Of a stretch of DNA of 64,000 nucleotides, positions 9,640 to 64,000 are shown one piece after another. A program made the translations under genes and the position numbers. The notes beneath the pieces are model-generated. The model was not told where the DNA came from, did not search any database, and saw nothing but the letters and a program-made list of their open reading frames with translations. This DNA comes from Candidatus Sysuiplasma jiujiangense (lineage in GTDB: Archaea; Thermoplasmatota; Thermoplasmata; Sysuiplasmatales; Sysuiplasmataceae): the NCBI GenBank assembly GCA_019721075.1, contig JAHEAD010000001.1:248001-312000 (forward strand). The letters are read 5' to 3'. The first letter of the stretch is position 1. Every line of letters begins with the position of its first letter.

Positions 9640-10021
9640 ATATCTCCCACCGTTTCACCAAGGTAAGAGAACGGTAAAAATTCACCTATACTAAAAGCTT
9701 CTTTTTATCCTCCTCTTCGAGTAAATAAAAAACATTTTCTAGTGCTGTTCCAATAGCAAAACGTTCACGTTAAATTATAACATAATTATACATTAAACAT
9801 TTTTAAAACAACAACTATAGAGTCCATGGTTTCCACTGGAAAAGGCTGTAATCTGCCTGTATCAATTAACTGTGTTATCGAAATCATATCCAAAAAGCTG
9901 TTAAGGTGTATTATTGAACAGGATCGACGTACAGATCAAAAAATATCTGGTACCATTGCCAGCTATAAAGCCAGCCACAGCATGATAGTATCAACATTCC
10001 AGTGGAAACCATGGACTCTAT
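9640..10021. promoter_or_regulatory. Chromosomal replication origin (oriC) with inverted ORB pair
   Basis: Perfect 25-bp inverted repeat at 9817-9841 and 9997-10021 containing TTCCAGTGGAAAC. AT-rich surroundings, immediately upstream of cdc6. Confidence 0.88.
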
Positions 10022-37680: not shown

Positions 37681-37980
37681 TTGATCGTACCCTCTTATCG
37701 TTCTTCAGGCGGTAAGGAATCTGCGGCATTATCTGTGGTGCTTTTATATTATCGGATTCGTCTGGTTGAATATAATTTTTCATACATCCAACGATAAGGT
37801 ATGTTGTCGGCAAATCATGGAGGAGAAGGGCATTTCATAGAGGGAACAGAAGAGAAGGAAGGGGTATGAACGAAACGAACATCTCCGTAAGGATGCAGGT
37901 GTCGGGATTGGGGATTTTTACCGTGTATCCCATTCTGACATCCTCAATGTATATGCACTGGCAGGACCGGGGGTATTTTC

Positions 37981-50624: not shown

Positions 50625-50857
50625 TACCGGATATGAAACCATCGCTGTCAAATCTGGAGCTACTTATTGTTATAGCTTCCGCGTGAAGGCATGAGGGGTC
50701 GGGCCGTTTTTCGCCTCGTAGCCCTCAGGCCGGCACGCGGGGTTCCCAACACTTCATGCAGAAGTGTGCGATTAGGCTGCCCTGAATCAACATAAATGGC
50801 GGACTTTTCGACGCCCTGTATGGAAATATCAAATACAATGTGTCAGCTGTATGCTCA

Positions 50858-51472
50858 ATGCGTGTTGCACTCTATGCCCGCGTTTCCACCAAGGACAGGG
50901 AACAGGATCCTGAGAATCAGCTGATGCGGCTCAGAGATTACTGCCGTTTAAGAGGCTGGGATTTCATAGAATTTGTAGATCATGCTTCCGGAGCCAAGAC
51001 GGACAGGCCTGCGCTCAATGAACTGATGTGCAAACTCTCAATGTTTGACGGCATCCTGGTCCTCCGCCTGGATAGATTCGGCAGGTCTGTCTCTGACCTC
51101 ACATTGAAGATACGGCAAATTAGGGACATGGGCCTGTTCTTCGAAGCTGTCGACCAGGGACTGCGTATATCGGGAGACGAGAGAGATGCAGTCTCGGGAC
51201 TGATGTATAACGTCCTCGCTTCTGTGGCCGAGTTCGAGAGGGAGTTGATTTCTGACAGAGTAAGAGATGGCATAACCCGGGCACGAAAGCAGGGCAAACG
51301 GCTAGGCAGGAGGCCTGTGGCGGAACAAAGAGGCGTCAGCATTGAGCAGGTGTTTGCCTTGAGAGACAGCGGCAAGAGCATCAGGGAGATATCACAGGCG
51401 GTTGGAATAGGCAGAGGCTCTGTGCATAGGATATTGCTGTCACGAAATCCCCCTGTCGAAAACGAAGCCTGA
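50858..51472 (+). CDS. Small serine recombinase (resolvase/invertase)
   Basis: YARVST, RLDRFGRS, AEFERELI and a C-terminal HTH. Confidence 0.95.
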   Translation: MRVALYARVSTKDREQDPENQLMRLRDYCRLRGWDFIEFVDHASGAKTDRPALNELMCKLSMFDGILVLRLDRFGRSVSDLTLKIRQIRDMGLFFEAVDQGLRISGDERDAVSGLMYNVLASVAEFERELISDRVRDGITRARKQGKRLGRRPVAEQRGVSIEQVFALRDSGKSIREISQAVGIGRGSVHRILLSRNPPVENEA

Positions 51473-52037: not shown

Positions 52038-52101
52038 AGGCCGTCATCCACATTATGTGTTGGCCCTTGTTAAGTCTAACGGAATATCGAGGTTCCATCT
52101 G

Positions 52102-52266
52102 TCGGCCACCCCTCCCCCCCAAACGCATATTAATGATGTGCGTCTCCCCAGACTTCTGCAAGATGAGAGGCGGATGAATGACAAAAGAGAACGGATTTGT
52201 GAAGGAATACTACATGGGCAGGAAAGACCAGTTCGACGTGGATTACGCGCTCTTCAGGGAAGCCGC
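52102..52266 (+). repeat. Left copy of a 165-bp direct repeat (promoter plus 5' half of a small gene)
   Basis: Matches 57933-58097 at 147/165 by hand count; the last 47 bp are identical. Confidence 0.92.
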
Positions 52267-52426
52267 TATAAGAATCGTCAGTCCCAGATGGGGAGGGAAC
52301 TCACAAGAGGAAAATTATAACCTTCCAGCAGTTCAAAAACTTCTCCGACGAGGAAAAAACAGCAAACACGGAGTGTCTTTCGTAATAATTGGGACCATCC
52401 TTCTCGTACTCGCCCTCTCGATATGA
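52178..52426 (+). pseudogene. Chimeric/truncated copy of the 58009 gene
   Basis: First 30 aa nearly identical to the 58009..58218 product, then unrelated sequence. Confidence 0.75.
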
Positions 52427-52573
52427 ACTTCAAGAAAGTGGGAAAGAGTCTGGGTCTGATATTGAGAGCAAAATGTATTTCAGGAACGAAGCTTGCATTA
52501 TTGATATCGGCAGATATAGCCGATCCGAAAAGACTTTAAAGCCACTAAAGCCACTTGAAAATTGGAAAAGTTG

Positions 52574-53140
52574 ATGATGCACATGGAGTTCAGGCTAAAA
52601 GACAATTGGTTCGACTATCTAATGTCTGGATTCTTTTCAGGAGTCTTCTTTGCACTTATTGTGGTTGGGTACGCGTTTAAAGATGTGGCGATGCCATTTT
52701 CATACTTGATTGCAACTTTCGGTGCGTTCGTACTATTCATTGTAACATTCATTGGCGCTTCATTTCGAAGTAAGAACAAATTTTCTTCCAGTGAATATAG
52801 ACAAGGGTACGCAGATGCAGAGAGTGGTATTAAGTTTTCCATTCCCTGTGTTGTATGTGGTAGCCCTGTTCTTGTTGGCAATAAGTCTCCAGTATATGAG
52901 CAAGTGAAGAAGCATTTATCTGATCTTGGAATTCAACATAAGACCTGTCTTGGTTCTGCCGCTACCCCTAAACTGTCAGCACAACAGGCAATAGACATGG
53001 CACTGGCATATGTAAAGACACAATCTAAAGGCAACGGAAATGTGGCAGACCCTATCTGCTCGAAATGCAGCGCACGAGTACCGTCAAGTTCAAAGTTCTG
53101 CAATTCATGCGGCTCCCCTATTGCGCCATCGCCAAAATAA
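52574..53140 (+). CDS. 2-TM protein with zinc-ribbon domains
   Basis: Two TM helices, CVVCG, and C-terminal CSKC...FCNSCG double zinc ribbon. Confidence 0.75.
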   Translation: MMHMEFRLKDNWFDYLMSGFFSGVFFALIVVGYAFKDVAMPFSYLIATFGAFVLFIVTFIGASFRSKNKFSSSEYRQGYADAESGIKFSIPCVVCGSPVLVGNKSPVYEQVKKHLSDLGIQHKTCLGSAATPKLSAQQAIDMALAYVKTQSKGNGNVADPICSKCSARVPSSSKFCNSCGSPIAPSPK

Positions 53141-53361
53141 GAAAGTGACTGCCTAATCTTATAATGATGTGTCGACATGTGCACCGAGTGTAATTATCGA
53201 GAGGCAATTCTTCGCACAGCCGCCTCGCCATATTCGTGCCCGGACAACAAGGCTGCATCCGATTATTGAGCTAACAGTTAATCTTTCATACACAGATAAG
53301 TGTTAGGAGGCGGTCTCAGGCCAAATATCAGTCTTAGCAACTCTTATACTACAATTTAATT

Positions 53362-53625
53362 ATGCACAGCAACAATTTCGACGCAATGAAGTCACAATAC
53401 AACCTTACCACCGATCAATTGGAAAGGGTGAAGGTTATCCTACTCACAACACGTTATTATAACGTGGCCAAGAGGGTCAAGAATGAGATAGGAGTACCCA
53501 AAAGAAACTATCGTTCAATAATGAAAGCTCATTTCCCAGAGTTCCTTGCTGGTGTTGAAATCGCCGATACTCTGATCTACACTTTTGCAGCATTATTTGC
53601 TCTTGCTCTGCTACATGTTCTGTGA
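53362..53625 (+). CDS. Small hypothetical protein with C-terminal TM helix
   Basis: 87 aa; flanked by 19-bp direct repeats. Confidence 0.6.
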   Translation: MHSNNFDAMKSQYNLTTDQLERVKVILLTTRYYNVAKRVKNEIGVPKRNYRSIMKAHFPEFLAGVEIADTLIYTFAALFALALLHVL

Positions 53626-53630
53626 AACCG

Positions 53631-53744
53631 AGTTAATCTTTGATACACAAAAGTTAACTTTTCCCTAGTTCCAGACCCGTTTTCAGACATGGGCCGTTGC
53701 GGGGACCCTATGAAAAAGTTAATCATTCCGAAAAACGATTAACT
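53631..53744. promoter_or_regulatory. Two dif-like tyrosine-recombinase sites
   Basis: AGTTAATCTTT-GATACAC-AAAAGTTAACT (53631-53659) and AGTTAATCATT-CCGAAA-AACGATTAACT (53717-53744, 11-6-11). Confidence 0.6.
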
Positions 53745-53768
53745 CGCAATGCAAACCTGGAGCTGCCC

Positions 53769-53948
53769 ATGTCTCATTCAAAGTTCTGCAAGTGCGGAAA
53801 GCCGACGGACAGCGTCGGAGCCTGCCCCACGTGCGGACAGTTCCCGGCCTTCTGCAGGTGCGAACATGTCCGGTTCCCCGGAGGTCTGACGCACAGTGCA
53901 GGGGATGGTGCCTTATGCACAGGGTGCACTCCGACTGAAGGAGTATGA
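53769..53948 (+). CDS. Cys-rich zinc-finger microprotein
   Basis: CKCG...CPTCG...CRC; overlaps the integrase start. Confidence 0.5.
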   Translation: MSHSKFCKCGKPTDSVGACPTCGQFPAFCRCEHVRFPGGLTHSAGDGALCTGCTPTEGV

Positions 53949-54510
53949 CAAGCTCCCGCCGCACATCACCAGGGAACAATATCTGAATCTGCTCAATGCC
54001 GTGGAAAGGAAGTATTCGTCCGCAGGACAGTGGGCGAAGAAGGCAAAGTATTACAGGGACAGGGACAAACTCCTCCTGCGGCTGATGTGGGAAACGGGAG
54101 GCAGGATAGGCGATATTCTGAACATCGTGCCTGGGAATTTCGACTTCGACAGGAAGGTTCTCAACCTCGGTGTGAAGAAGAGAAAGAACACCAACACCAT
54201 ACCGCTTGATGATGGTCTCCTGCTCGAGGTCAGCAACTATCTCAGAAACTACGCTGTCGGCGGCAAATTGTGTGATTTCTATAAAGTGCAGGCCTGGAAG
54301 ATTGTGAGAGCGTACGGGAGGGAGACTGGAATTGATGTGCATCCTCACATGTTCAGGCATGGGCTTGCCATACATTTGCTTGAGAACAATGTGCCTATAC
54401 CGATAATCTCGGCGAGGTTGGGCCATTCAAATGTGCTGACGACCATGAGGTATTATCTCGTGATAACGCCGGAAGTCCAGAGACAGTTCATGCAGGGAGT
54501 CAGACTGTGA
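53905..54510 (+). CDS. Short tyrosine recombinase (Xer/integrase catalytic domain)
   Basis: ETGGRIGD, HPHMFRH, LGHS and TTMRYY catalytic residues; about 200 aa. Confidence 0.93.
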   Translation: MVPYAQGALRLKEYDKLPPHITREQYLNLLNAVERKYSSAGQWAKKAKYYRDRDKLLLRLMWETGGRIGDILNIVPGNFDFDRKVLNLGVKKRKNTNTIPLDDGLLLEVSNYLRNYAVGGKLCDFYKVQAWKIVRAYGRETGIDVHPHMFRHGLAIHLLENNVPIPIISARLGHSNVLTTMRYYLVITPEVQRQFMQGVRL

Positions 54511-54511
54511 T

Positions 54512-55435
54512 ATGGAGCCTAAGGACAAGTTTGGAAGACATTTGTATGGAAAAGTTTGGCTTCAATTATGTGAGAATGGCGTGAAATTGAAACAAGCAGG
54601 GTACTGGGAAAGTAAAAAGAAACCAAACCTGTTCATGAAAATAGAGGGTGACTTCTCATTGTACGCCGACATGCGAGGAACTGAAGAAGTACCTATCTGG
54701 GAGGATACAAGTCCGTTGTTTTATGCATATCCAAAAGATCGGAAAGAGGCCGACCAATATCAAACCGAAACGATAAGAACAATAATTGCCTCTGAAATCT
54801 ATAAGTTGTATTCTGCAGGTCTCGATGTGAGACTTAGTTTTTACGATCAATGTGAGCCGGGCGGCCAGAGCTTTGACGTTTACTACCAATGTGTAAACTG
54901 CGATATGCCTTTTGGGTACGTTTCACAAGAACCGTATTGCGATAGGTGTGAGGAACAGCATGATGCGGAGGAATCAGCGAGAGACAAACGGAACGCAGTT
55001 ATAACATTGAACCATGCTGAAAAGTGTGTGGTATGTGGAGTGCGAATCCTAAGCAAAAACAAACTCGTTAGCATGAAACAAAATCTGGAAGAAGTTACCG
55101 ATATTGAAGAGGGGCAAGTTCACCATACACATTACATCCCAGAAAAAACAATCAGTACTTGTCGTCAATGTCACTCTAAAATACATCGCTCGAAAGATCC
55201 CTACTACCAGCAATTCAAAGCTGAAATAACCAGAAAGGAATTTCAAAAGATTGTGTCGGAACGTGCAAAGGAAAGAAAACAATGGCGATTGAAATGTCAT
55301 ACATTCATGAGACATGCAAAGGAAGAGAGAGAAAAGGAAGAGAGAGAACAAAAACGACTGAAAGATCCTTACCATGCATTTGTAGTTGAGCGGAGAAACC
55401 AAAAAGTAAAAGCACGGGAACCGAAGATAAAATGA
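54512..55435 (+). CDS. Hypothetical protein with zinc finger and HNH-like motif
   Basis: CVVCG...VHHTHY...TCRQCHSKIH. Confidence 0.65.
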   Translation: MEPKDKFGRHLYGKVWLQLCENGVKLKQAGYWESKKKPNLFMKIEGDFSLYADMRGTEEVPIWEDTSPLFYAYPKDRKEADQYQTETIRTIIASEIYKLYSAGLDVRLSFYDQCEPGGQSFDVYYQCVNCDMPFGYVSQEPYCDRCEEQHDAEESARDKRNAVITLNHAEKCVVCGVRILSKNKLVSMKQNLEEVTDIEEGQVHHTHYIPEKTISTCRQCHSKIHRSKDPYYQQFKAEITRKEFQKIVSERAKERKQWRLKCHTFMRHAKEEREKEEREQKRLKDPYHAFVVERRNQKVKAREPKIK

Positions 55436-55579
55436 AGAAGATATACGACCGACGAGCGCGACGTCGACCCGTATTTTGCGAGGCGATTGAGCCTTTGCCA
55501 AGCGCATTCCATCAAATGAAAGGAAACGAGATATTTTATTACCCAATCCACGTTCACCATTCGCGGGGATGCTATAGTT

Positions 55580-56962
55580 TTGAAGAGAAAAAAATCTGAT
55601 TTGCCCTTCGGCTCGCAATTCAGTCCTTCTCAAATATCTATTGAGGAGGTGCTGGAACTCGTAAACGAGAATCGGGGAGCTACACGACAGTTTACTAATA
55701 ATATACGGGATCGTTTTTTTGATAAACATGCGAACGGAGATCCGAAGCAACAAATGGAACTTGCGAAAAACGTGAGGCTTTCATTGCGGTCATATGGAAT
55801 TATCGGGGAAGACGAGCAGATGACTGAGTTCGGCAAAAGACTTTACGAACTTAAGGACAGAGGTGATGAATTCTATAAGTTATTGTCCCAACATATTTTG
55901 CTTGAACTGAAGGGTCTGGATTTACTTCGAGCTGTAAGTAATTTGAAAGCCCTCCGCTTGCAAACGGACCTCGTATCTATCGCTCGAGAACTGAAAGAAT
56001 ATGGAATATACGTGCCAGAATCAGGGACCCATATTTCAACGATGAAACAATGGTTGCAAAAGGCTGGAATTGTTGACGAACAGTGGAACATTAATCAAAC
56101 GCTTTTGAGAAAACTCATTGGTTATAACCTGCAGGAGATTGATGTATTTTCAGATTTCGGTCCTGAAATGAGAGGATTCCTCAGGGCATTAGCGTCTCTC
56201 GCTCCTATTGACTGGATATCTTCATGGGATGTTGCAAGGCATGCGCAGTCGATGAGTCATGTAAAATTTGACGCAAAAAACCTGAGAGAGCAAATCGTCT
56301 TTCCACTTCGGGATGAAGGCTTAATCGAAATCAGAAAATCCACCAGCGGTAGGGGCGCCAAGCCATATGAGATAAAAGTGACTGATGAATTCAAATCTCA
56401 GTATATTTTGCCAATATTGGAAGTGTTATCCGAGTCGGGCGATGTTCCTATCCACACATTATCCAAGCCTCTGTTTGATGTTCTGAATGACGTAGAAAGT
56501 GATGACACTTACATCAAGGGAAAAGGACTTGAAATGCTGGCTATGCACTTGTGTCGTCTGCTTGGTCTGCACATCACCTCCTGGCGGCGACGTGGAACAG
56601 AGACTGGTGGAGCTGAAGTGGATTTAATAGCAGAGGGGACAAATTATGTTTTTTCAAGATGGGAACTTCAATGCAAGAACACATCACAAGTTACGCTAGA
56701 CAATATTGCCAGAGAGGTTGGCGTCTCTCTGCATTCAAGAGCCAATGCCATCCTGATTGTTACCACAGGAAAGTTTTCAAGAGATGCTGTCAGTTTTGCA
56801 GAGCAGACAACGATAAAATCGCCACTCAGTATTATCTTGATGGATGCGGCCGACCTCAGGCAAGTTATAAGTGATCCATCCTCAATAGGTGCGATATTGA
56901 GAAAGCAGGCCAATAAAGCGATGCAACTAAATAAACAAATAAGACCTGAGAGAGAGGGCTGA
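55580..56962 (+). CDS. Restriction endonuclease with C-terminal Mrr-like PD-(D/E)xK domain
   Basis: GKGLE...EVDLI...WELQCK...IVTTGKFS; 3 bp upstream of the MTase. Confidence 0.8.
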   Translation: MKRKKSDLPFGSQFSPSQISIEEVLELVNENRGATRQFTNNIRDRFFDKHANGDPKQQMELAKNVRLSLRSYGIIGEDEQMTEFGKRLYELKDRGDEFYKLLSQHILLELKGLDLLRAVSNLKALRLQTDLVSIARELKEYGIYVPESGTHISTMKQWLQKAGIVDEQWNINQTLLRKLIGYNLQEIDVFSDFGPEMRGFLRALASLAPIDWISSWDVARHAQSMSHVKFDAKNLREQIVFPLRDEGLIEIRKSTSGRGAKPYEIKVTDEFKSQYILPILEVLSESGDVPIHTLSKPLFDVLNDVESDDTYIKGKGLEMLAMHLCRLLGLHITSWRRRGTETGGAEVDLIAEGTNYVFSRWELQCKNTSQVTLDNIAREVGVSLHSRANAILIVTTGKFSRDAVSFAEQTTIKSPLSIILMDAADLRQVISDPSSIGAILRKQANKAMQLNKQIRPEREG

Positions 56963-56965
56963 GAA

Positions 56966-57922
56966 ATGGTAAGAACTGGACCACAGTGGTTGGATGCATT
57001 GAAATTACCGCCATTCTATTACAGAACCGGACTCGGTGCTGCTTTCTTGGGTGATTCGATCAAGCTTTGCAGAAAATTGCCAGATAATTCGATAGACTTG
57101 ATAATGACATCACCGCCCTTTGCGCTGAGGCGTAAAAAGGAATATGGCAATGTCGAAGCGAGCGAATATGTTGAATGGTTTCAGCCATTCGCTGAAGAAT
57201 TTTACAGGGCCCTGAAACCCAAAGGAAGTTTGGTCATTGATATTGGGGGGTCTTGGAACGAAGGATTTCCCACTCGCTCTGTATATCAATACGAGCTGCT
57301 TCTGTCGCTCGTTCGTATGGGTTTCTATCTTTGCCAAGATTTCTTTTGGTATAATCCAGCTAAGCTTCCTTCTCCTGCAGAATGGGTAAATGTTCGTAGG
57401 ATCAGAGTGAAAGACGCCGTTGATCCTGTTTGGTGGCTATCCAAAGACCCTTTCCCAAAAGCGAACAATAGAAAAGTGCTCAAGGAGTATAGCAATTCGA
57501 TGCAACAGCTGTTACTGAATGGGTACAAGCCAAAACTCCGCCCTTCCGGACATGACATAACTTCTAAGTTTTCACACGATCATGGTGGGGCCATACCTCC
57601 TAACATCCTGATAGCCGCAAACACGGAATCCAACAGCCTTTATCTGAGATCATGCAAAGCAGCCAACATGAATCCACATCCGGCGCGTTATCCGTTGAAA
57701 CTACCCAAATTCTTCATTGAATTCCTAACAGATGAAGGCGATATAGTGCTGGATCCGTTCGCTGGAAGCAACGTTACAGGAGAAGCATCAGAAATATTGA
57801 AACGAAAATGGTTGGCGTTTGAAATTATCGAGAACTACGTTGTTGGTTCCAAATTTAGATTTGATAAGGTAATAAGCAAGGGGAAACCGTCATCAGTGTT
57901 GGAACACTACGTTGAGGCATGA
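56966..57922 (+). CDS. Beta-class amino (likely N4-cytosine) DNA methyltransferase
   Basis: TSPPF motif IV precedes HPARYP and VLDPFAGS motif I; PvuII-like layout. Confidence 0.92.
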   Translation: MVRTGPQWLDALKLPPFYYRTGLGAAFLGDSIKLCRKLPDNSIDLIMTSPPFALRRKKEYGNVEASEYVEWFQPFAEEFYRALKPKGSLVIDIGGSWNEGFPTRSVYQYELLLSLVRMGFYLCQDFFWYNPAKLPSPAEWVNVRRIRVKDAVDPVWWLSKDPFPKANNRKVLKEYSNSMQQLLLNGYKPKLRPSGHDITSKFSHDHGGAIPPNILIAANTESNSLYLRSCKAANMNPHPARYPLKLPKFFIEFLTDEGDIVLDPFAGSNVTGEASEILKRKWLAFEIIENYVVGSKFRFDKVISKGKPSSVLEHYVEA

Positions 57923-57932
57923 TGAATACCTT

Positions 57933-58097
57933 TCGCCCACCCCTCTCCCCAAAACGCATATTAAGGATGTGCATCTCCCCACACCTCCGCAAGATAAGAG
58001 GTAGATGAATGACAAAAGAGAACGGATTCGTGAAAGAGTATTACACAGGTAGGAAAGACCAGTTCGACGTGGATTACGCGCTCTTCAGGGAAGCCGC
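57933..58097 (+). repeat. Right copy of the 165-bp direct repeat
   Basis: Matches 52102-52266 at an offset of 5831 bp. Confidence 0.92.
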
Positions 58098-58759: not shown

Positions 58760-59050
58760 TCAGTCTGTCCTACCGGAGTCAACAATTTGTATGATTTCCC
58801 GGAGCTTCCTGGCTACTTTCCTGCCTTTCAGGGTGCAGAATATGAGGTTTCTCGCCGGATAACTGTCATTGTCAATTCTGCTGCCGACGAGCCCCATTGC
58901 CTTGGCTTTCTCTATTGACGAGTAGAGTTGATGGACGGGAATCCCAGTCTCCTCGAGCACTTCGGTCAAGGGCTTCTCGCCATCCTGTGCCAGGTAGACG
59001 ATGAGCCTGAGCAAGCCTGACTGCTTCTCCAGTGTCCGCAGCACGTCCAT
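58760..59050 (-). CDS. Winged-helix transcriptional regulator
   Basis: LTEVLEETGIPVHQLYSSIEKAKAMGLV...TLKGRKVA. Confidence 0.8.
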   Translation of the reverse strand: MDVLRTLEKQSGLLRLIVYLAQDGEKPLTEVLEETGIPVHQLYSSIEKAKAMGLVGSRIDNDSYPARNLIFCTLKGRKVARKLREIIQIVDSGRTD

Positions 59051-59136
59051 GGCAGTGTATCTGGATACTGCAATTAAGAGTTTCCGGTTGCGCAAGCAGA
59101 AAGAATATATCTGATGATTGCTGTTTCGACAATCAT

Positions 59137-59904
59137 ATGAGAACAAGGAGCCTGTTTCCCTATGCCGGCGGCAAGTTCTATCTCATGAATGAGATAAGGG
59201 GAGTGTTCGAGAAATCTGGCAGGCATGTGGCCATCGATGTGTTTGGAGGCTCGGGAAAATTCCTGCTGAATGTGGAAGCCAGAAATAAGGTTTACAATGA
59301 CATTGACTCAAGGCTTGTCAATCTCTTCAGCGTAATCAAGGAGAGGCCCTTGGAGTTCAGGCAGAAATTTGAATCCTTCGTCTACTCGAGAGAGCTATTT
59401 GAGAAATATGTCGATGGGTCTGAAACCGGGGAACCTGTGGAGGATGCGTTCAGAACCTTCTACGTGTTCTACTGTTCATTTGCCGGCAAGGGAGGGACAT
59501 TCGGATACCAGGTGAGGGACAGAAAATCGCTCGGTCGCAAGGTTGTGGACGTATCAGCAAGACTGCAGGATTTCCACAATGAAATACAGGGCTGGACAAT
59601 CGAGCACCTGGACTTCAGGGACTTGATGAAGCGTTACGACAGTGAAGATGCATTTTTCTATCTGGACCCTCCGTATTTCGGAAGGAAGTTTTACCGGTAC
59701 AATTTCACGGAAAAGGATTTCGAAGACTTGGCAGCTATGCTCCATGCGCTGAAGGGGAAGTATCTACTGAACATCAACAAGAACGAGTTTATACTCGACA
59801 GGTTCGGCGCGCCCTGCAGTGAAATGGAGTTCAAGAGCTTCTGTGATAACGCCAGAGTCAGTGGAAAGAGGGGGAGCAGGACGGAACTGTTCTATTGGAA
59901 TTGA
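59137..59904 (+). CDS. Dam-like (D12 class) DNA adenine methyltransferase, orphan
   Basis: PYAGGK, DVFGGSG, YND and YLDPPY motifs. Confidence 0.93.
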   Translation: MRTRSLFPYAGGKFYLMNEIRGVFEKSGRHVAIDVFGGSGKFLLNVEARNKVYNDIDSRLVNLFSVIKERPLEFRQKFESFVYSRELFEKYVDGSETGEPVEDAFRTFYVFYCSFAGKGGTFGYQVRDRKSLGRKVVDVSARLQDFHNEIQGWTIEHLDFRDLMKRYDSEDAFFYLDPPYFGRKFYRYNFTEKDFEDLAAMLHALKGKYLLNINKNEFILDRFGAPCSEMEFKSFCDNARVSGKRGSRTELFYWN

Positions 59905-61046: not shown

Positions 61047-61535
61047 TTAAAACTGATTGAGAGTTGTTCGATTATTTTTCCAGTAATCGCTGAGGTCATC
61101 CGACTTGATGACCCAAATATCCATTTCCACCCCTTGGATTCTCACTGGTCCGCCACGACGAGTGCTCTTGTTTACGAGTATGTGCTTTGTGGGACTCCGT
61201 TTATCAGATCTCTGTTGTTCGTATCTTTGGCCCAGCTTTCCCCACTTGCCGCTTGTAACGATGAGCAGATACCTCACATCCAGACCGTTCATCCTCGCTG
61301 CGTTGAAGGTAACACCCAATTGGTCAATTGCCGTATCAATGTGGCCAACGCCCTTCCTTTCAACAACAATCCAATGACATGTAGTATAATGCCCCATCGC
61401 GTCTGCCTTTCGCTTTCCTTGAAGCCCGAACCTTTTCTCGATGTCCTCAGGTGAAAGTATCTCATCGACATCGCCTTCAGTAGGCAGGGGAATTATGAGT
61501 CGCCTCAGTTCATCTGGGACGTTGTCCTTAGTCAT
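61047..61535 (-). CDS. Putative PD-(D/E)xK nuclease-fold protein
   Basis: KADAM...WIVVERKG...AIDQL. Confidence 0.55.
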   Translation of the reverse strand: MTKDNVPDELRRLIIPLPTEGDVDEILSPEDIEKRFGLQGKRKADAMGHYTTCHWIVVERKGVGHIDTAIDQLGVTFNAARMNGLDVRYLLIVTSGKWGKLGQRYEQQRSDKRSPTKHILVNKSTRRGGPVRIQGVEMDIWVIKSDDLSDYWKNNRTTLNQF

Positions 61536-61572
61536 CTGCGCTCCTTCCTCGCTATGATTGTTCTGTCCGAGT

Positions 61573-61719
61573 TCACTCCCACTCCACCGTCAACCTCTCC
61601 TTCTTCTGCGTCTGTCCTCCGGACAGCGCCTTCCGCACATACAGTGTTCCAATCACAGGGTCTGTGAATGTCTTCTCCTGGAACCTGTAGGTGTTCTTCG
61701 TGGCACGGTCGAGTTTCAA
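61573..61719 (-). CDS. 48-aa linker microprotein (module A)
   Basis: LKLDRATKNTYRFQEKTFTDPVIGTLYVRK...; about 80% DNA identity to 63262-63341. Confidence 0.55.
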   Translation of the reverse strand: MKLDRATKNTYRFQEKTFTDPVIGTLYVRKALSGGQTQKKERLTVEWE

Positions 61720-61734
61720 AGTCGAGATGGTTAG

Positions 61735-62814
61735 TCACGATCCCTTCTCCGAAATCAAGTGTTGAGCCAACTTAATCAATGCCTTTGTAACGATGATGAG
61801 ATATTCCGCGTCGGCGACCGAAATCTTCACTTGTTCTGGCGGATATGTTTTCTTGAAGTCCTCTATATGAAGGTCTATGGAAGCTTGATCTTTGAAACTT
61901 GTCCTTCCTTGCAACCTAGCGAATGCTCTACCCCATCGTTCCTTATAAGCAAAACTACTCTCACCAAGAGAAACCTTCAACGTCTGGTCCAATAAATCTC
62001 CAGCATTTCTGCAGTTAGCGCAAATACTCTTCGTATCCCATCTCATCAGAGATTTTTCTGCCAAATCAACGTATGCCCATGCATCTTTCAGCGTTCTTTC
62101 TCCCTTTGGAATCTCCACCACGAAGAATTCCCCGAGACCCAACACAGGAGCAATATCATTTATCCAGTCAGATGAAGCAATCTTGGCCTCGAATTTTGTC
62201 TCAAAATGCTCAACGCTAAGATAGCCAGCACCTTGTGTGTTTTGAGACGTATTGGACGAAAGTAGAACCAGATTGCCGCGAGGCTGCAGATATCTATCAT
62301 TTAGGTACGCGTAGAGCAAAAGACTGATGTTGTTTACGTCTGTGCCAAATGTTTTCGACACCTGGCTCTTGAACTGTTCGGATAGAGGCACGCTATCAAA
62401 AGGAAATTCAACAACGTACGACATTTGAGTTTTATTCAAAACATAATCAACCAAGACTTTAATATCAATCTTTACGTCGCCTTTTCTGTCGAGTCTCCTA
62501 CTTTCCTCGATGAAACTTAGCGATTGTCGGTCGAAAATAGCAACGGCGGAAATAACTTGCTCAACCTCTTCGAATTGTTCACCTATGTACCTTATCGCCT
62601 GAAGGGATGCGCCGCTGAATGAGACCTCGGGCATGAGCATCGCGATTGTTTTGTCTTGAATTGTAATCGACCCGCTCAGACTCAGAAGCGCTTCTTGGCT
62701 TCTGCGGTACCTCACACCAAAAGTGAAGCGTAATGCGGGTTTGAAATAATCGGTAGCCGCCAGTACGGATATGTGTTTTACATTCATCTTAGCACTCCCA
62801 TAACTCTCTTCCAC
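61735..62814 (-). CDS. Hypothetical protein with helical C-terminal (HEPN-like?) domain
   Basis: Beta-rich N-terminus and helical C-terminus; shares a motif with the 63381 gene. Confidence 0.65.
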   Translation of the reverse strand: MEESYGSAKMNVKHISVLAATDYFKPALRFTFGVRYRRSQEALLSLSGSITIQDKTIAMLMPEVSFSGASLQAIRYIGEQFEEVEQVISAVAIFDRQSLSFIEESRRLDRKGDVKIDIKVLVDYVLNKTQMSYVVEFPFDSVPLSEQFKSQVSKTFGTDVNNISLLLYAYLNDRYLQPRGNLVLLSSNTSQNTQGAGYLSVEHFETKFEAKIASSDWINDIAPVLGLGEFFVVEIPKGERTLKDAWAYVDLAEKSLMRWDTKSICANCRNAGDLLDQTLKVSLGESSFAYKERWGRAFARLQGRTSFKDQASIDLHIEDFKKTYPPEQVKISVADAEYLIIVTKALIKLAQHLISEKGS

Positions 62815-62830
62815 AATCGGCTTCCATCCA

Positions 62831-62920
62831 TCACTCCTCCAGCACCTCCTCAATCTTCTTCAGTAGCTCTGCCACCTTCTTCTTGGCATTGATTAACTCG
62901 ACGTTGTGTTGCTTGTTCAT
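62831..62920 (-). CDS. 29-aa linker microprotein (module B)
   Basis: MNKQHNVELINAKKKVAELLKKIEEVLEE; last 50 bp match 63218-63267 at 43/50. Confidence 0.5.
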   Translation of the reverse strand: MNKQHNVELINAKKKVAELLKKIEEVLEE

Positions 62921-62933
62921 GGCGTTGCCATCC

Positions 62934-63221
62934 TCATTGTTTTTTACGCTCTTTCCGTTTCTTAAGGATGTCACATAGTGTTGAATCCACACTTCTTGCG
63001 ATTAAAGCTGAGCCCCAGAGCATAAGAAATGCAGAGGCAACCACTACCGTCATCGCCGATAATGCTGCAACACAGTATGAGTTGAAGTGTGAGTTCTTGA
63101 CAAAGCCTATTGCGCTGTTGGCAAAATAATTGAAACTGAAGACGACTCCCGCGACTACAAGCCCTACGCCAAAGGAGTACTTGATTTTCGGAAGTCCACC
63201 GTTTTCGTCTTTACTCGTCAC
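62934..63221 (-). CDS. Small 2-TM membrane protein
   Basis: Two TM helices and a basic tail; GTG start overlaps the linker TGA. Confidence 0.6.
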   Translation of the reverse strand: MTSKDENGGLPKIKYSFGVGLVVAGVVFSFNYFANSAIGFVKNSHFNSYCVAALSAMTVVVASAFLMLWGSALIARSVDSTLCDILKKRKERKKQ

Positions 63222-63370
63222 CCCTCCAGCACCTCCTCAATCTTGCTCAGCAGTTCCGCAACCTTCTGCACATACAGCGTTACGATTACAGAGTCAGTTA
63301 ACGTAATCTTCTGGAACCTGCAGGTGTTCTTTGTAGCACGGTTGAATGCAAGGCCGAGTTGCCAATTCAT
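63218..63370 (-). CDS. 50-aa chimeric linker microprotein (module A + module B)
   Basis: ...NRATKNTCRFQKITLTDSVIVTLYVQK joined to VAELLSKIEEVLEG. Confidence 0.55.
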   Translation of the reverse strand: MNWQLGLAFNRATKNTCRFQKITLTDSVIVTLYVQKVAELLSKIEEVLEG

Positions 63371-63380
63371 AGTTTTACTC

Positions 63381-64000
63381 CTATCTGGTCTTCCCTTCCT
63401 TTGTGGCTTCATCGTTGATTACAACCTGTGAAAGAATCTTAGATAGATACTCCATCAGGGAGACCGTCATTCTGAAACCGAGCAATGCGTCCTGATATGT
63501 CGACAAATAAATTTCTCTATGGGCACCTATCTGTAGGAATTGATCAACCTTCTTCTGAAGATTCCCAATGCTCTCGATCAGATTCTTCTGTGCGCCTACG
63601 ATCTCGAAAATCCGCTCATCCTTTGAGGGTCTACCCTTCTCTGAATCCGACTTCTCGTTGATTGCTTTCTTTAGTTCATTCAGTTTGTTATTTAGATAGG
63701 GGTCAAACCTATCCCAGGAGGCTCTGAGGTCGGTAAGTATGTCTGAGGCGTCTGATTGCGGCCCGAGCAATAGTTTTTCATTGGCACTCTGAACCTTCTC
63801 AAAAACAGTGCTAAATCCTTCTAACTTAGGTCTCTCAATTTCCACAATCCATTTTTCTCCATAGCCAATATCAGCCAGAAATTTTGTCCATTTAGTTTGC
63901 GAAAATGACCACAAACCACCGAGTTGCAACGTTCCTGATGGATTTGGAGAGCCTGATCCTTGCCTTGTGTTGTCTGCACGAACTTCCTCATAGAAGCCCG
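63381..64000 (-). CDS. Hypothetical protein, 5' truncated by window; distant paralog of the 61735 gene
   Basis: Frame open to the window end; SQTKWTKFLADIGYGEKWIVEI. Confidence 0.65.
   Translation of the reverse strand, partial: GFYEEVRADNTRQGSGSPNPSGTLQLGGLWSFSQTKWTKFLADIGYGEKWIVEIERPKLEGFSTVFEKVQSANEKLLLGPQSDASDILTDLRASWDRFDPYLNNKLNELKKAINEKSDSEKGRPSKDERIFEIVGAQKNLIESIGNLQKKVDQFLQIGAHREIYLSTYQDALLGFRMTVSLMEYLSKILSQVVINDEATKEGKTR

Follow-up and report, generated by a model that had tools for sequence, protein, structure and literature searches.

A variable cargo slot between a repressor-like gene and a small conserved gene in an integrated element of a Thermoplasmata archaeon

What are the short sequences that recur between the minus-strand genes at the end of this window, and why are they kept there? 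The window is the whole stretch of DNA analysed here, 64,000 nt of Candidatus Sysuiplasma jiujiangense (G000:C1:248001-312000, G000 being the genome studied), and the genes in question form an array within a ~31.4-kb provirus integrated at a tRNA-Gly. We found that the array fills a slot whose contents vary among relatives, and that this slot lies between a pair of conserved element genes, a winged-helix repressor-like gene on its 5' side and a small gene, A, on its 3' side. The recurring sequences are pieces of these two genes: module B is the last ~50 nt of the 95-aa repressor-like gene and not a stand-alone linker, and module A is the 5' two-thirds of a small, widespread gene family of ~55 aa. 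We consider it probable that the repressor and gene A act as anchors of a cargo slot that varies within a family of proviruses and other integrated elements of Thermoplasmata, that A'/B' chimeras of their pieces arose by microhomology joins and then served in homologous exchange, that B' is kept for translation, and that the cargo consists most likely of conflict or antiviral genes.

The array has the scheme repressor-cargo1-A'/B'-cargo2-A'/B'-cargo3-A. Its features, in minus-strand order, are as follows.

C1:312421-312708 (64421-64708 in extended window coordinates), minus strand: winged-helix repressor-type gene, 95 aa (Pfam HxlR PF01638, E 1.5e-6)
C1:312365-312424, minus strand, beyond the window edge: 19-aa micro open reading frame (micro-ORF) between the repressor and cargo1
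G000:C1:311381-312364, minus strand: cargo1, an ORF of 327 aa, its 3' part in the window at 63381..64000
63218..63370, minus strand: A'/B' chimeric ORF, 50 aa, A codons 1-36 plus the repressor's last helix
62934..63221, minus strand: cargo2, a small hydrophobic protein of 95 aa, its GTG start overlapping the B stop
62831..62920, minus strand: shorter A'/B' chimeric ORF, 29 aa, the first ~14 codons of A plus B (62831-62880)
62784..62834, minus strand: 16-aa micro-ORF that links the B stop and the cargo3 start, through a GTGA and an ATGA overlap, respectively
61735..62787, minus strand: cargo3, ~350 aa, with an immunoglobulin (Ig)-like plus HEPN-like predicted model and an invariant S-x-x-x-H
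61573..61738, minus strand: full-length small gene A, frameshifted near its start; the shifted 68-aa frame (61738-61532) overlaps the next start
61047..61535, minus strand: 162-aa gene, the first of the conserved block downstream of the slot

The variability of the slot was observed directly by comparing relatives. In G230 (L074) the repressor is followed by A with no gene between, while G002 (L067) and L083 each carry one different gene at this place. G003 (L065) has a B remnant, an A-like gene, a second B remnant, a 134-aa gene and A, followed by the same 162-aa gene as in the window; this block matches the window over 3790 nt (89.6%), up to 61712, which is a position inside A. In G002 the match at the slot is limited to A and the end of the repressor. 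The order in L088 is repressor, PKD-domain gene, a second repressor end of ~110 nt, then A; L084 and L090 have B, a cargo gene ending in a 25-nt piece of B, A, and then B again. The earlier note on this DNA had proposed a gene-acquisition hotspot with conserved linkers as recombination handles, and would have given it up for a one-off duplication had these been the only copies and gene order fixed. The hotspot stands: relatives carry none, one or other gene stacks, synteny breaks at A and B, and further copies and varied gene orders occur in relatives and in metagenome contigs. Recombination at the modules is well supported indirectly; the idea of dedicated linkers has to be dropped.

The repeats themselves are present where that note had reported them. 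The two copies of module A (61629-61712 and 63262-63345, 84 nt) are 81% identical and those of module B (62831-62880 and 63218-63267, 50 nt) 86% identical (43/50), with genome-wide BLASTN E-values of 8e-14 and 3e-7, respectively. The linker at 63218, described as an in-frame fusion of A and B, is an ORF of 50 aa (63370-63218) in which the A homology and the B homology share AGAAGG at the join, and the B copy at 62831 is likewise preceded by a short 5' piece of A (ORF 62920-62831). The array also runs beyond the window, as had been expected: a third copy of module B, at 64421-64471 (G000:C1:312421-312471), lies 421 nt past the edge and forms the end of the full winged-helix gene. The modules are not the purpose-built linker micro-ORFs that had been supposed; they are pieces of two ordinary conserved element genes, the repressor 3' end and the 5' part of the small gene, with lengths that depend on the lineage and with differing join positions.

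The winged-helix gene lies in divergent orientation to a 64-aa ORF and to a series of early genes, which ends in a tyrosine integrase overlapping the tRNA-Gly. From this position, comparable with that of the repressor in SNJ2 (PMC10123103), we read it as a presumptive repressor. Among 35 homologues plus the query, collected by a word-based search, residues 63-95 average 84-86% identity and the remainder 47-58%; the B motif forms the C-terminal end of 28 of the 35, and the set holds 14 N-terminal types. As the C-terminal end is conserved across N-terminal types, a common handle is available across elements with different repressors. The B copies differ mainly at synonymous sites (pS 0.28-0.38 and pN 0.06-0.09, over 15 codons), as intact repressor alleles do among themselves, which suggests that they arrived with cargo from other elements and are not local duplicates that have drifted.

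Some further observations concern the repressor. A second, paralogous winged-helix gene (window 58760-59146) is 48% identical to it, adjoins a Dam-like methylase and is conserved in G003, and the repressor of some relatives consists of two fused winged-helix domains (L074:6687-7196, L083:5567-6085, L088:36-509). An isolated B-like remnant at G000:C1:201787-201849, ~270 nt from the other tRNA-Gly and beside transposase-like fragments, is probably a decayed element. Contigs of three of the four metagenome runs join the conserved C-terminal third of the repressor to near the end of the 64-aa divergent ORF, with the intervening sequence not known (L002:4513-4982), which suggests that the repressor N-terminus, the operator and the 64-aa ORF form an immunity module that is swapped as such. 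The 19-aa micro-ORF that follows the repressor (L002:4365-4424) has its first five residues and a TRRGG motif in common with the 162-aa gene, and may be what a deletion left of a related gene.

Gene A has 56 homologues of about 55 aa, and relatives were found at 13 loci in viral contigs and in 11 of the 301 genomes of the class searched. It gave no match in Pfam, PHROGs or NCBIfam, and none by tblastn in annotated phages. Its fold comparison reached a best Z of 4.5, the look-alikes in the Atlas being unnamed clusters; an AbrB-like fold was also considered and was not supported. A complex prediction of the L074 repressor domain with A scored 0.00 and is uninformative. The copy at 61573-61738 has a +1 frameshift near its start, and the extra base is absent in a contig of metagenome run X3. 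Divergent A-like genes also stand in the slot (L065:2114-2317, L066:1-140, L087:6596-6811, L135:680-844), with the C-terminal strand of A kept and different middles, and in G003 one such gene stands after both the full repressor and a B remnant.

Of the 56 A homologues, 4 (P0029, P0036, P0041 and P0044) are A/B chimeras joined as in the window, and the same join, after A codon 36, recurs in contigs of runs X3 and X5. Altogether, A is joined to B at three positions, one behind codon ~14, one behind codon 36 and one at the stop of A, with purine-rich microhomology at every join; the codon-14 join could alternatively be an internal deletion of the longer chimera. The B remnants measure 25-110 nt. 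A weight matrix for the B end, built from eight repressor ends, scored at least 15 beside 14 of 33 A copies, positives that include the window's own chimera and one training gene. Among control windows at G000 ORFs, 1 of 2195 on the upstream side and 1 of 2195 on the downstream side reached this score. The 31 loci used were chosen as Thermoplasmata-like (one of them without a row), with more distant A loci and two duplicates left aside. Exact DNA-pattern scans for the A/B junction and for B gave no match in the viral_contigs or metagenome_contigs collections, which may lack the lineage, and these blanks are thus uninformative.

Metagenome contigs, taken from 4 of the 22 listed runs (four studies) and placed at 85% likeness, showed comparable variation. 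The runs holding array DNA are mostly mine-drainage, tailings and sediment metagenomes. Summed depth in the four runs was 114, 17, 166 and 42 for A and 229, 6, 199 and 220 for the repressor end, and mostly 2-35 for the cargo. Three of the runs have depth peaks on both A and B; in X5 these are weak or absent, with no peak at the repressor end, and the depth of cargo3 is also high in X6. In X3, ten contigs diverge from the reference at the repressor stop with sequences unlike one another (agreement 0.47). A 3010-nt contig of X6 carries cargo3 at a depth of 72.7, compared with near 9 for cargo1 and cargo2, and its match ends inside a module B copy (B1). We also observed A'/B' joins with other alleles in X3 and X5 (joint 4464 to 1629, side 44) and, in X5 and X6, a different A allele that looks intact behind cargo1 (side 74-80). 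Joints with shorter sides, of 26-33 nt, are compatible with arrays lacking cargo2, cargo3 or any cargo; they were placed at the same 85%, lie mostly within modules and possibly come from other elements. Joints that go back fit circles and tandem arrays equally.

The end of module B carries translation signals. It ends GAGGAGGTGCTGGAGGRGTGA, and in all three B copies the stop overlaps a GTG start, with the Shine-Dalgarno (SD) motif GGAGGTG 8 nt upstream of that GTG. The 16S rRNA tail of the host (contig C2) ends GGATCACCTCC, which is complementary to this motif. From the repressor through the 162-aa gene, neighbouring ORFs overlap by 4 nt, abut, or stand 10-13 nt apart, and the frameshifted A frame too ends on the start of the next gene. 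As B carries an SD and every ORF overlaps or nearly touches the next, translational coupling along the array is plausible. In Haloferax and E. coli, overlaps of this type couple translation tightly, the contribution of the SD being variable (PMC6728339).

Taken together, the array could have been built as follows. The simple states seen in relatives, repressor-A and repressor-cargo-A, would represent the starting point. From time to time, purine-rich parts of A and of the repressor 3' end would then have been joined under the guidance of microhomology, which would have created A'/B' junctions and duplicated the slot. The observed variation would reflect B'-cargo-A' units that enter, leave and swap by homologous recombination at the 25-110-nt pieces; these are common to many co-occurring elements, and the array would thereby grow additively. 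B' would be kept for its SD and stop/start overlap, with which each cargo gene could be translated from the transcript of the repressor, expected to be active in the lysogen.

Several points weigh against this reconstruction. PADLOC, proposed earlier as a check on the cargo, names none of the array's cargo genes. The word-based search for repressor homologues favours shared words, so that the C-terminal conservation is inflated, and this conservation may reflect constraint on the protein; 15 codons are also a short basis for the pS and pN values. In the B-end test, several of the loci are close kin and share the training sequences. The contig joints show a variety of junctions and arrangements, not excision or loss from this provirus, and neither a circular intermediate nor a recombination event was seen in these assembled contigs. 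In G236 and G682 no A adjoins the homologues of cargo3 and cargo1, and the B-like matches in L158 stand at a distance of one gene, upstream and downstream, and not at the cargo edges; the cargo is therefore not permanently packaged with the modules.

Among the alternatives, the one that survives best, which we nevertheless hold to be unlikely, takes the modules as neutral scars, leftovers of repeated illegitimate insertions or duplications behind the repressor that persist only for the SD they supply and have no special part in later exchange. The range of remnant lengths, 25 to 110 nt, agrees with this, and so do the frequent decay of A copies (the frameshift here; stops or excess replacement changes in L067, L070, L073 and L076), the altered invariant residues in the A part of the window's chimera, and cargo homologues without modules at their edges. 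However, four database proteins and two metagenomes show the same A'/B' junction with different alleles, the modules are the places where synteny breaks and contigs branch, and the B copies look like imported repressor alleles and not like local duplicates that have drifted.

An integron-like, site-specific system, in which one of the three recombinases of the element (the tyrosine recombinase at 53896-54510, the integrase at the tRNA or the resolvase at 50840-51472) joins a site in A with a site in B and so moves cassettes, we regard as highly improbable. The presence of these enzymes, the shared junction after A codon 36 and the start of many remnants near the same position of B would fit such a system, but at least three different A positions are joined to B, and folding of the two chimeric junctions is no stronger than that of shuffled sequences (z +0.46 and +0.22, with +1.42 for the repressor end). 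The intact A copy gave a folding z of -3.4, and values below -2 were seen in only 5 of 33 A alleles. The two tyrosine recombinases score 36.5 and 55.4 bits against the integron-integrase model TIGR02249, whose cut-off is 265, and the reciprocal product (repressor 5' part plus A tail) occurs in 0 of the 35 repressor homologues and among none of the listed contig joints. Since the junction positions differ, the A/B junctions have no attC-like fold and no integron integrase was found, we concluded that the array is not an integron. That the A/B chimeric peptides are functional, for example as modulators of the repressor through its last helix, and were retained for that is barely credible: five 50-aa chimeras keep an open frame and the B changes are mostly synonymous, but the protein search detects in-frame fusions only, invariant A residues are changed in the window copy, most of A is absent from the second one, and in L084 and L090 B stands after a complete A as a separate micro-ORF.

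If the slot is indeed an exchange site anchored by the repressor and gene A, the nature of its cargo comes into question. None of the array's cargo genes has a match in Pfam, PADLOC, NCBIfam or PHROGs. Cargo3 has 55 homologues, including the window's own cluster, and cargo1 has 92; the two families are remote homologues (HHalign 97.1%, E 5.6e-11), and cargo1 would, from this alignment, share the architecture of cargo3. The predicted model of cargo3 (pLDDT 84) consists of an N-terminal Ig-like beta-sandwich and a C-terminal HEPN-like helical bundle, and its residues 231-350 best match the HEPN domain 2hsb (Z 10.0, root-mean-square deviation 3.5, 106 aligned), a score that unrelated helical bundles equal. 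HEPN RNases carry the catalytic motif R-x4-6-H. Each of the two families has an invariant histidine (S304-x3-H308 in cargo3, H282 in cargo1) without the canonical RxxxxH, and the two histidines are unaligned in HHalign. The Atlas search with cargo1 returned only unnamed clusters under 0.9. Near the slot at other loci, 16 of 49 hand-picked proteins have PADLOC matches (methylases, restriction proteins, HerA, DruA, PDC-M24B/M41A and weaker ones), and many other slot neighbours in relatives are unnamed, membrane or Ta1207-family genes. The PADLOC matches around the slot in relatives make a defence role likely for part of the cargo; for the cargo of this array it is unproven. From its Ig-like plus HEPN-like fold, an antiviral role of cargo3 is possible.

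The element that hosts the array has, among others, the following features.

37894..37909, plus strand: putative attL, a 16-bp repeat of the tRNA-Gly(TCC) 3' end
G000:C1:317297-317312: putative attR, which pairs with attL to bound the ~31.4-kb element
53896-54510: tyrosine recombinase of the element
50840-51472: resolvase of the element

Its third recombinase is the integrase at the tRNA. The other genes encode a helicase, membrane proteins (one of 666 aa with a C-terminal membrane segment, small ones, and one of 464 aa), an ATPase, and methylase/restriction proteins. By its gene content the element looks like a provirus with an enveloped particle, and its gene order (666-aa protein, small membrane proteins, 464-aa protein, ATPase) resembles that of Pleolipoviridae. 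The element proteins have no sequence match to solved spikes or phage records, and the searches gave no family assignment; the ATPase matches Haloferax phage LSV-48N weakly. The source names of homologues are mostly Thermoplasmata.

Two further repeats were seen in the window. A duplication of 168 nt (52099-52266 and 57930-58097, 89%), which comprises the start of a conserved gene of 69 aa, flanks a membrane protein, a tyrosine recombinase, a gene of 307 aa and a restriction-modification pair of type II; the comparable position holds a type IIG-like enzyme in G003 and other large genes in G002. As these contents differ, the 52099-58097 region is probably a second variable slot of the same element. 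A perfect 25-nt inverted repeat (9817-9841 and 9997-10021, 155 nt apart) resembles a miniature transposable element.

How does the locus compare with known systems? In lambdoid phages, boundary or linker sequences at conserved gene boundaries promote module exchange and give replacement; here, in contrast, fragments are duplicated and units accumulate. In the antiviral hotspots of prophages and satellites (P2, P4, and the Vibrionaceae hotspot between cI and integrase), for which exchange by homologous recombination has been proposed (PMC9122126), a small high-turnover locus likewise lies between two conserved element genes, as it does here beside the repressor; the present one is archaeal and additive, its units are separated by duplicated fragments of the anchor genes, and an antiviral role of its cargo is only putative. 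PeSLs of T4-type phages, non-coding promoter/stem-loop motifs ending in an SD, flank accessory genes and act as recombination points, and mini-circles have been shown for them (PMC2839356). The short repeats here similarly carry an SD, flank accessory genes and would act as recombination points, but they are coding fragments of the repressor and a small gene, the junctions have no stem-loop, and circles were not detected in the contigs. With integrons, including archaeal ones (bioRxiv 10.1101/2022.02.06.479319), the array shares tandem same-strand single-gene units behind one presumed promoter that vary among relatives; it differs in having no integron integrase, no attC-like hairpin at the junctions and no single crossover point. 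The orf4-orf7 region of pleolipovirus SNJ2 also has a winged helix-turn-helix repressor, accessory genes (HicAB toxin-antitoxin in SNJ2) and a small beta-rich protein; no Orc1 was noticed in the present element, and the accessible part of PMC10123103 describes no repeated fragments for orf4-orf7. No homology of gene A to SNJ2 Orf7 turned up in a phage-collection search, which gave no match and involved no direct comparison of the two. Nor was any description of the locus found in the open literature, the scope being that outside subscription journals and supplements.

We therefore regard the locus as an additive archaeal variant of prophage cargo hotspots, which differs from these in that duplicated coding pieces of the anchor genes themselves form the repeats. 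A more far-reaching and distinctly tentative possibility is that it represents a recombinase-free, integron-like cassette platform common to viruses of Thermoplasmata: the repressor 3' end would be kept almost identical across repressor specificities so as to allow B'-cargo-A' units, possibly as circles, to move between unrelated elements and to be translated at once in the lysogen, and the pool in the slot would consist of undescribed archaeal antiviral genes, including the Ig-like/HEPN-like family.

The finding would mean that an archaeal virus can use parts of its core genes to make a cassette array that is expandable and involves no dedicated recombinase; it also points to a concrete way in which the fast turnover at prophage hotspots could come about. 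Neither of the two large cargo families is labelled in Pfam or PADLOC, although they have 55 and 92 database homologues. The repressor end and gene A may offer two short anchors with which to collect candidate antiviral genes of acidophilic archaea, a group in which defence systems are poorly annotated.

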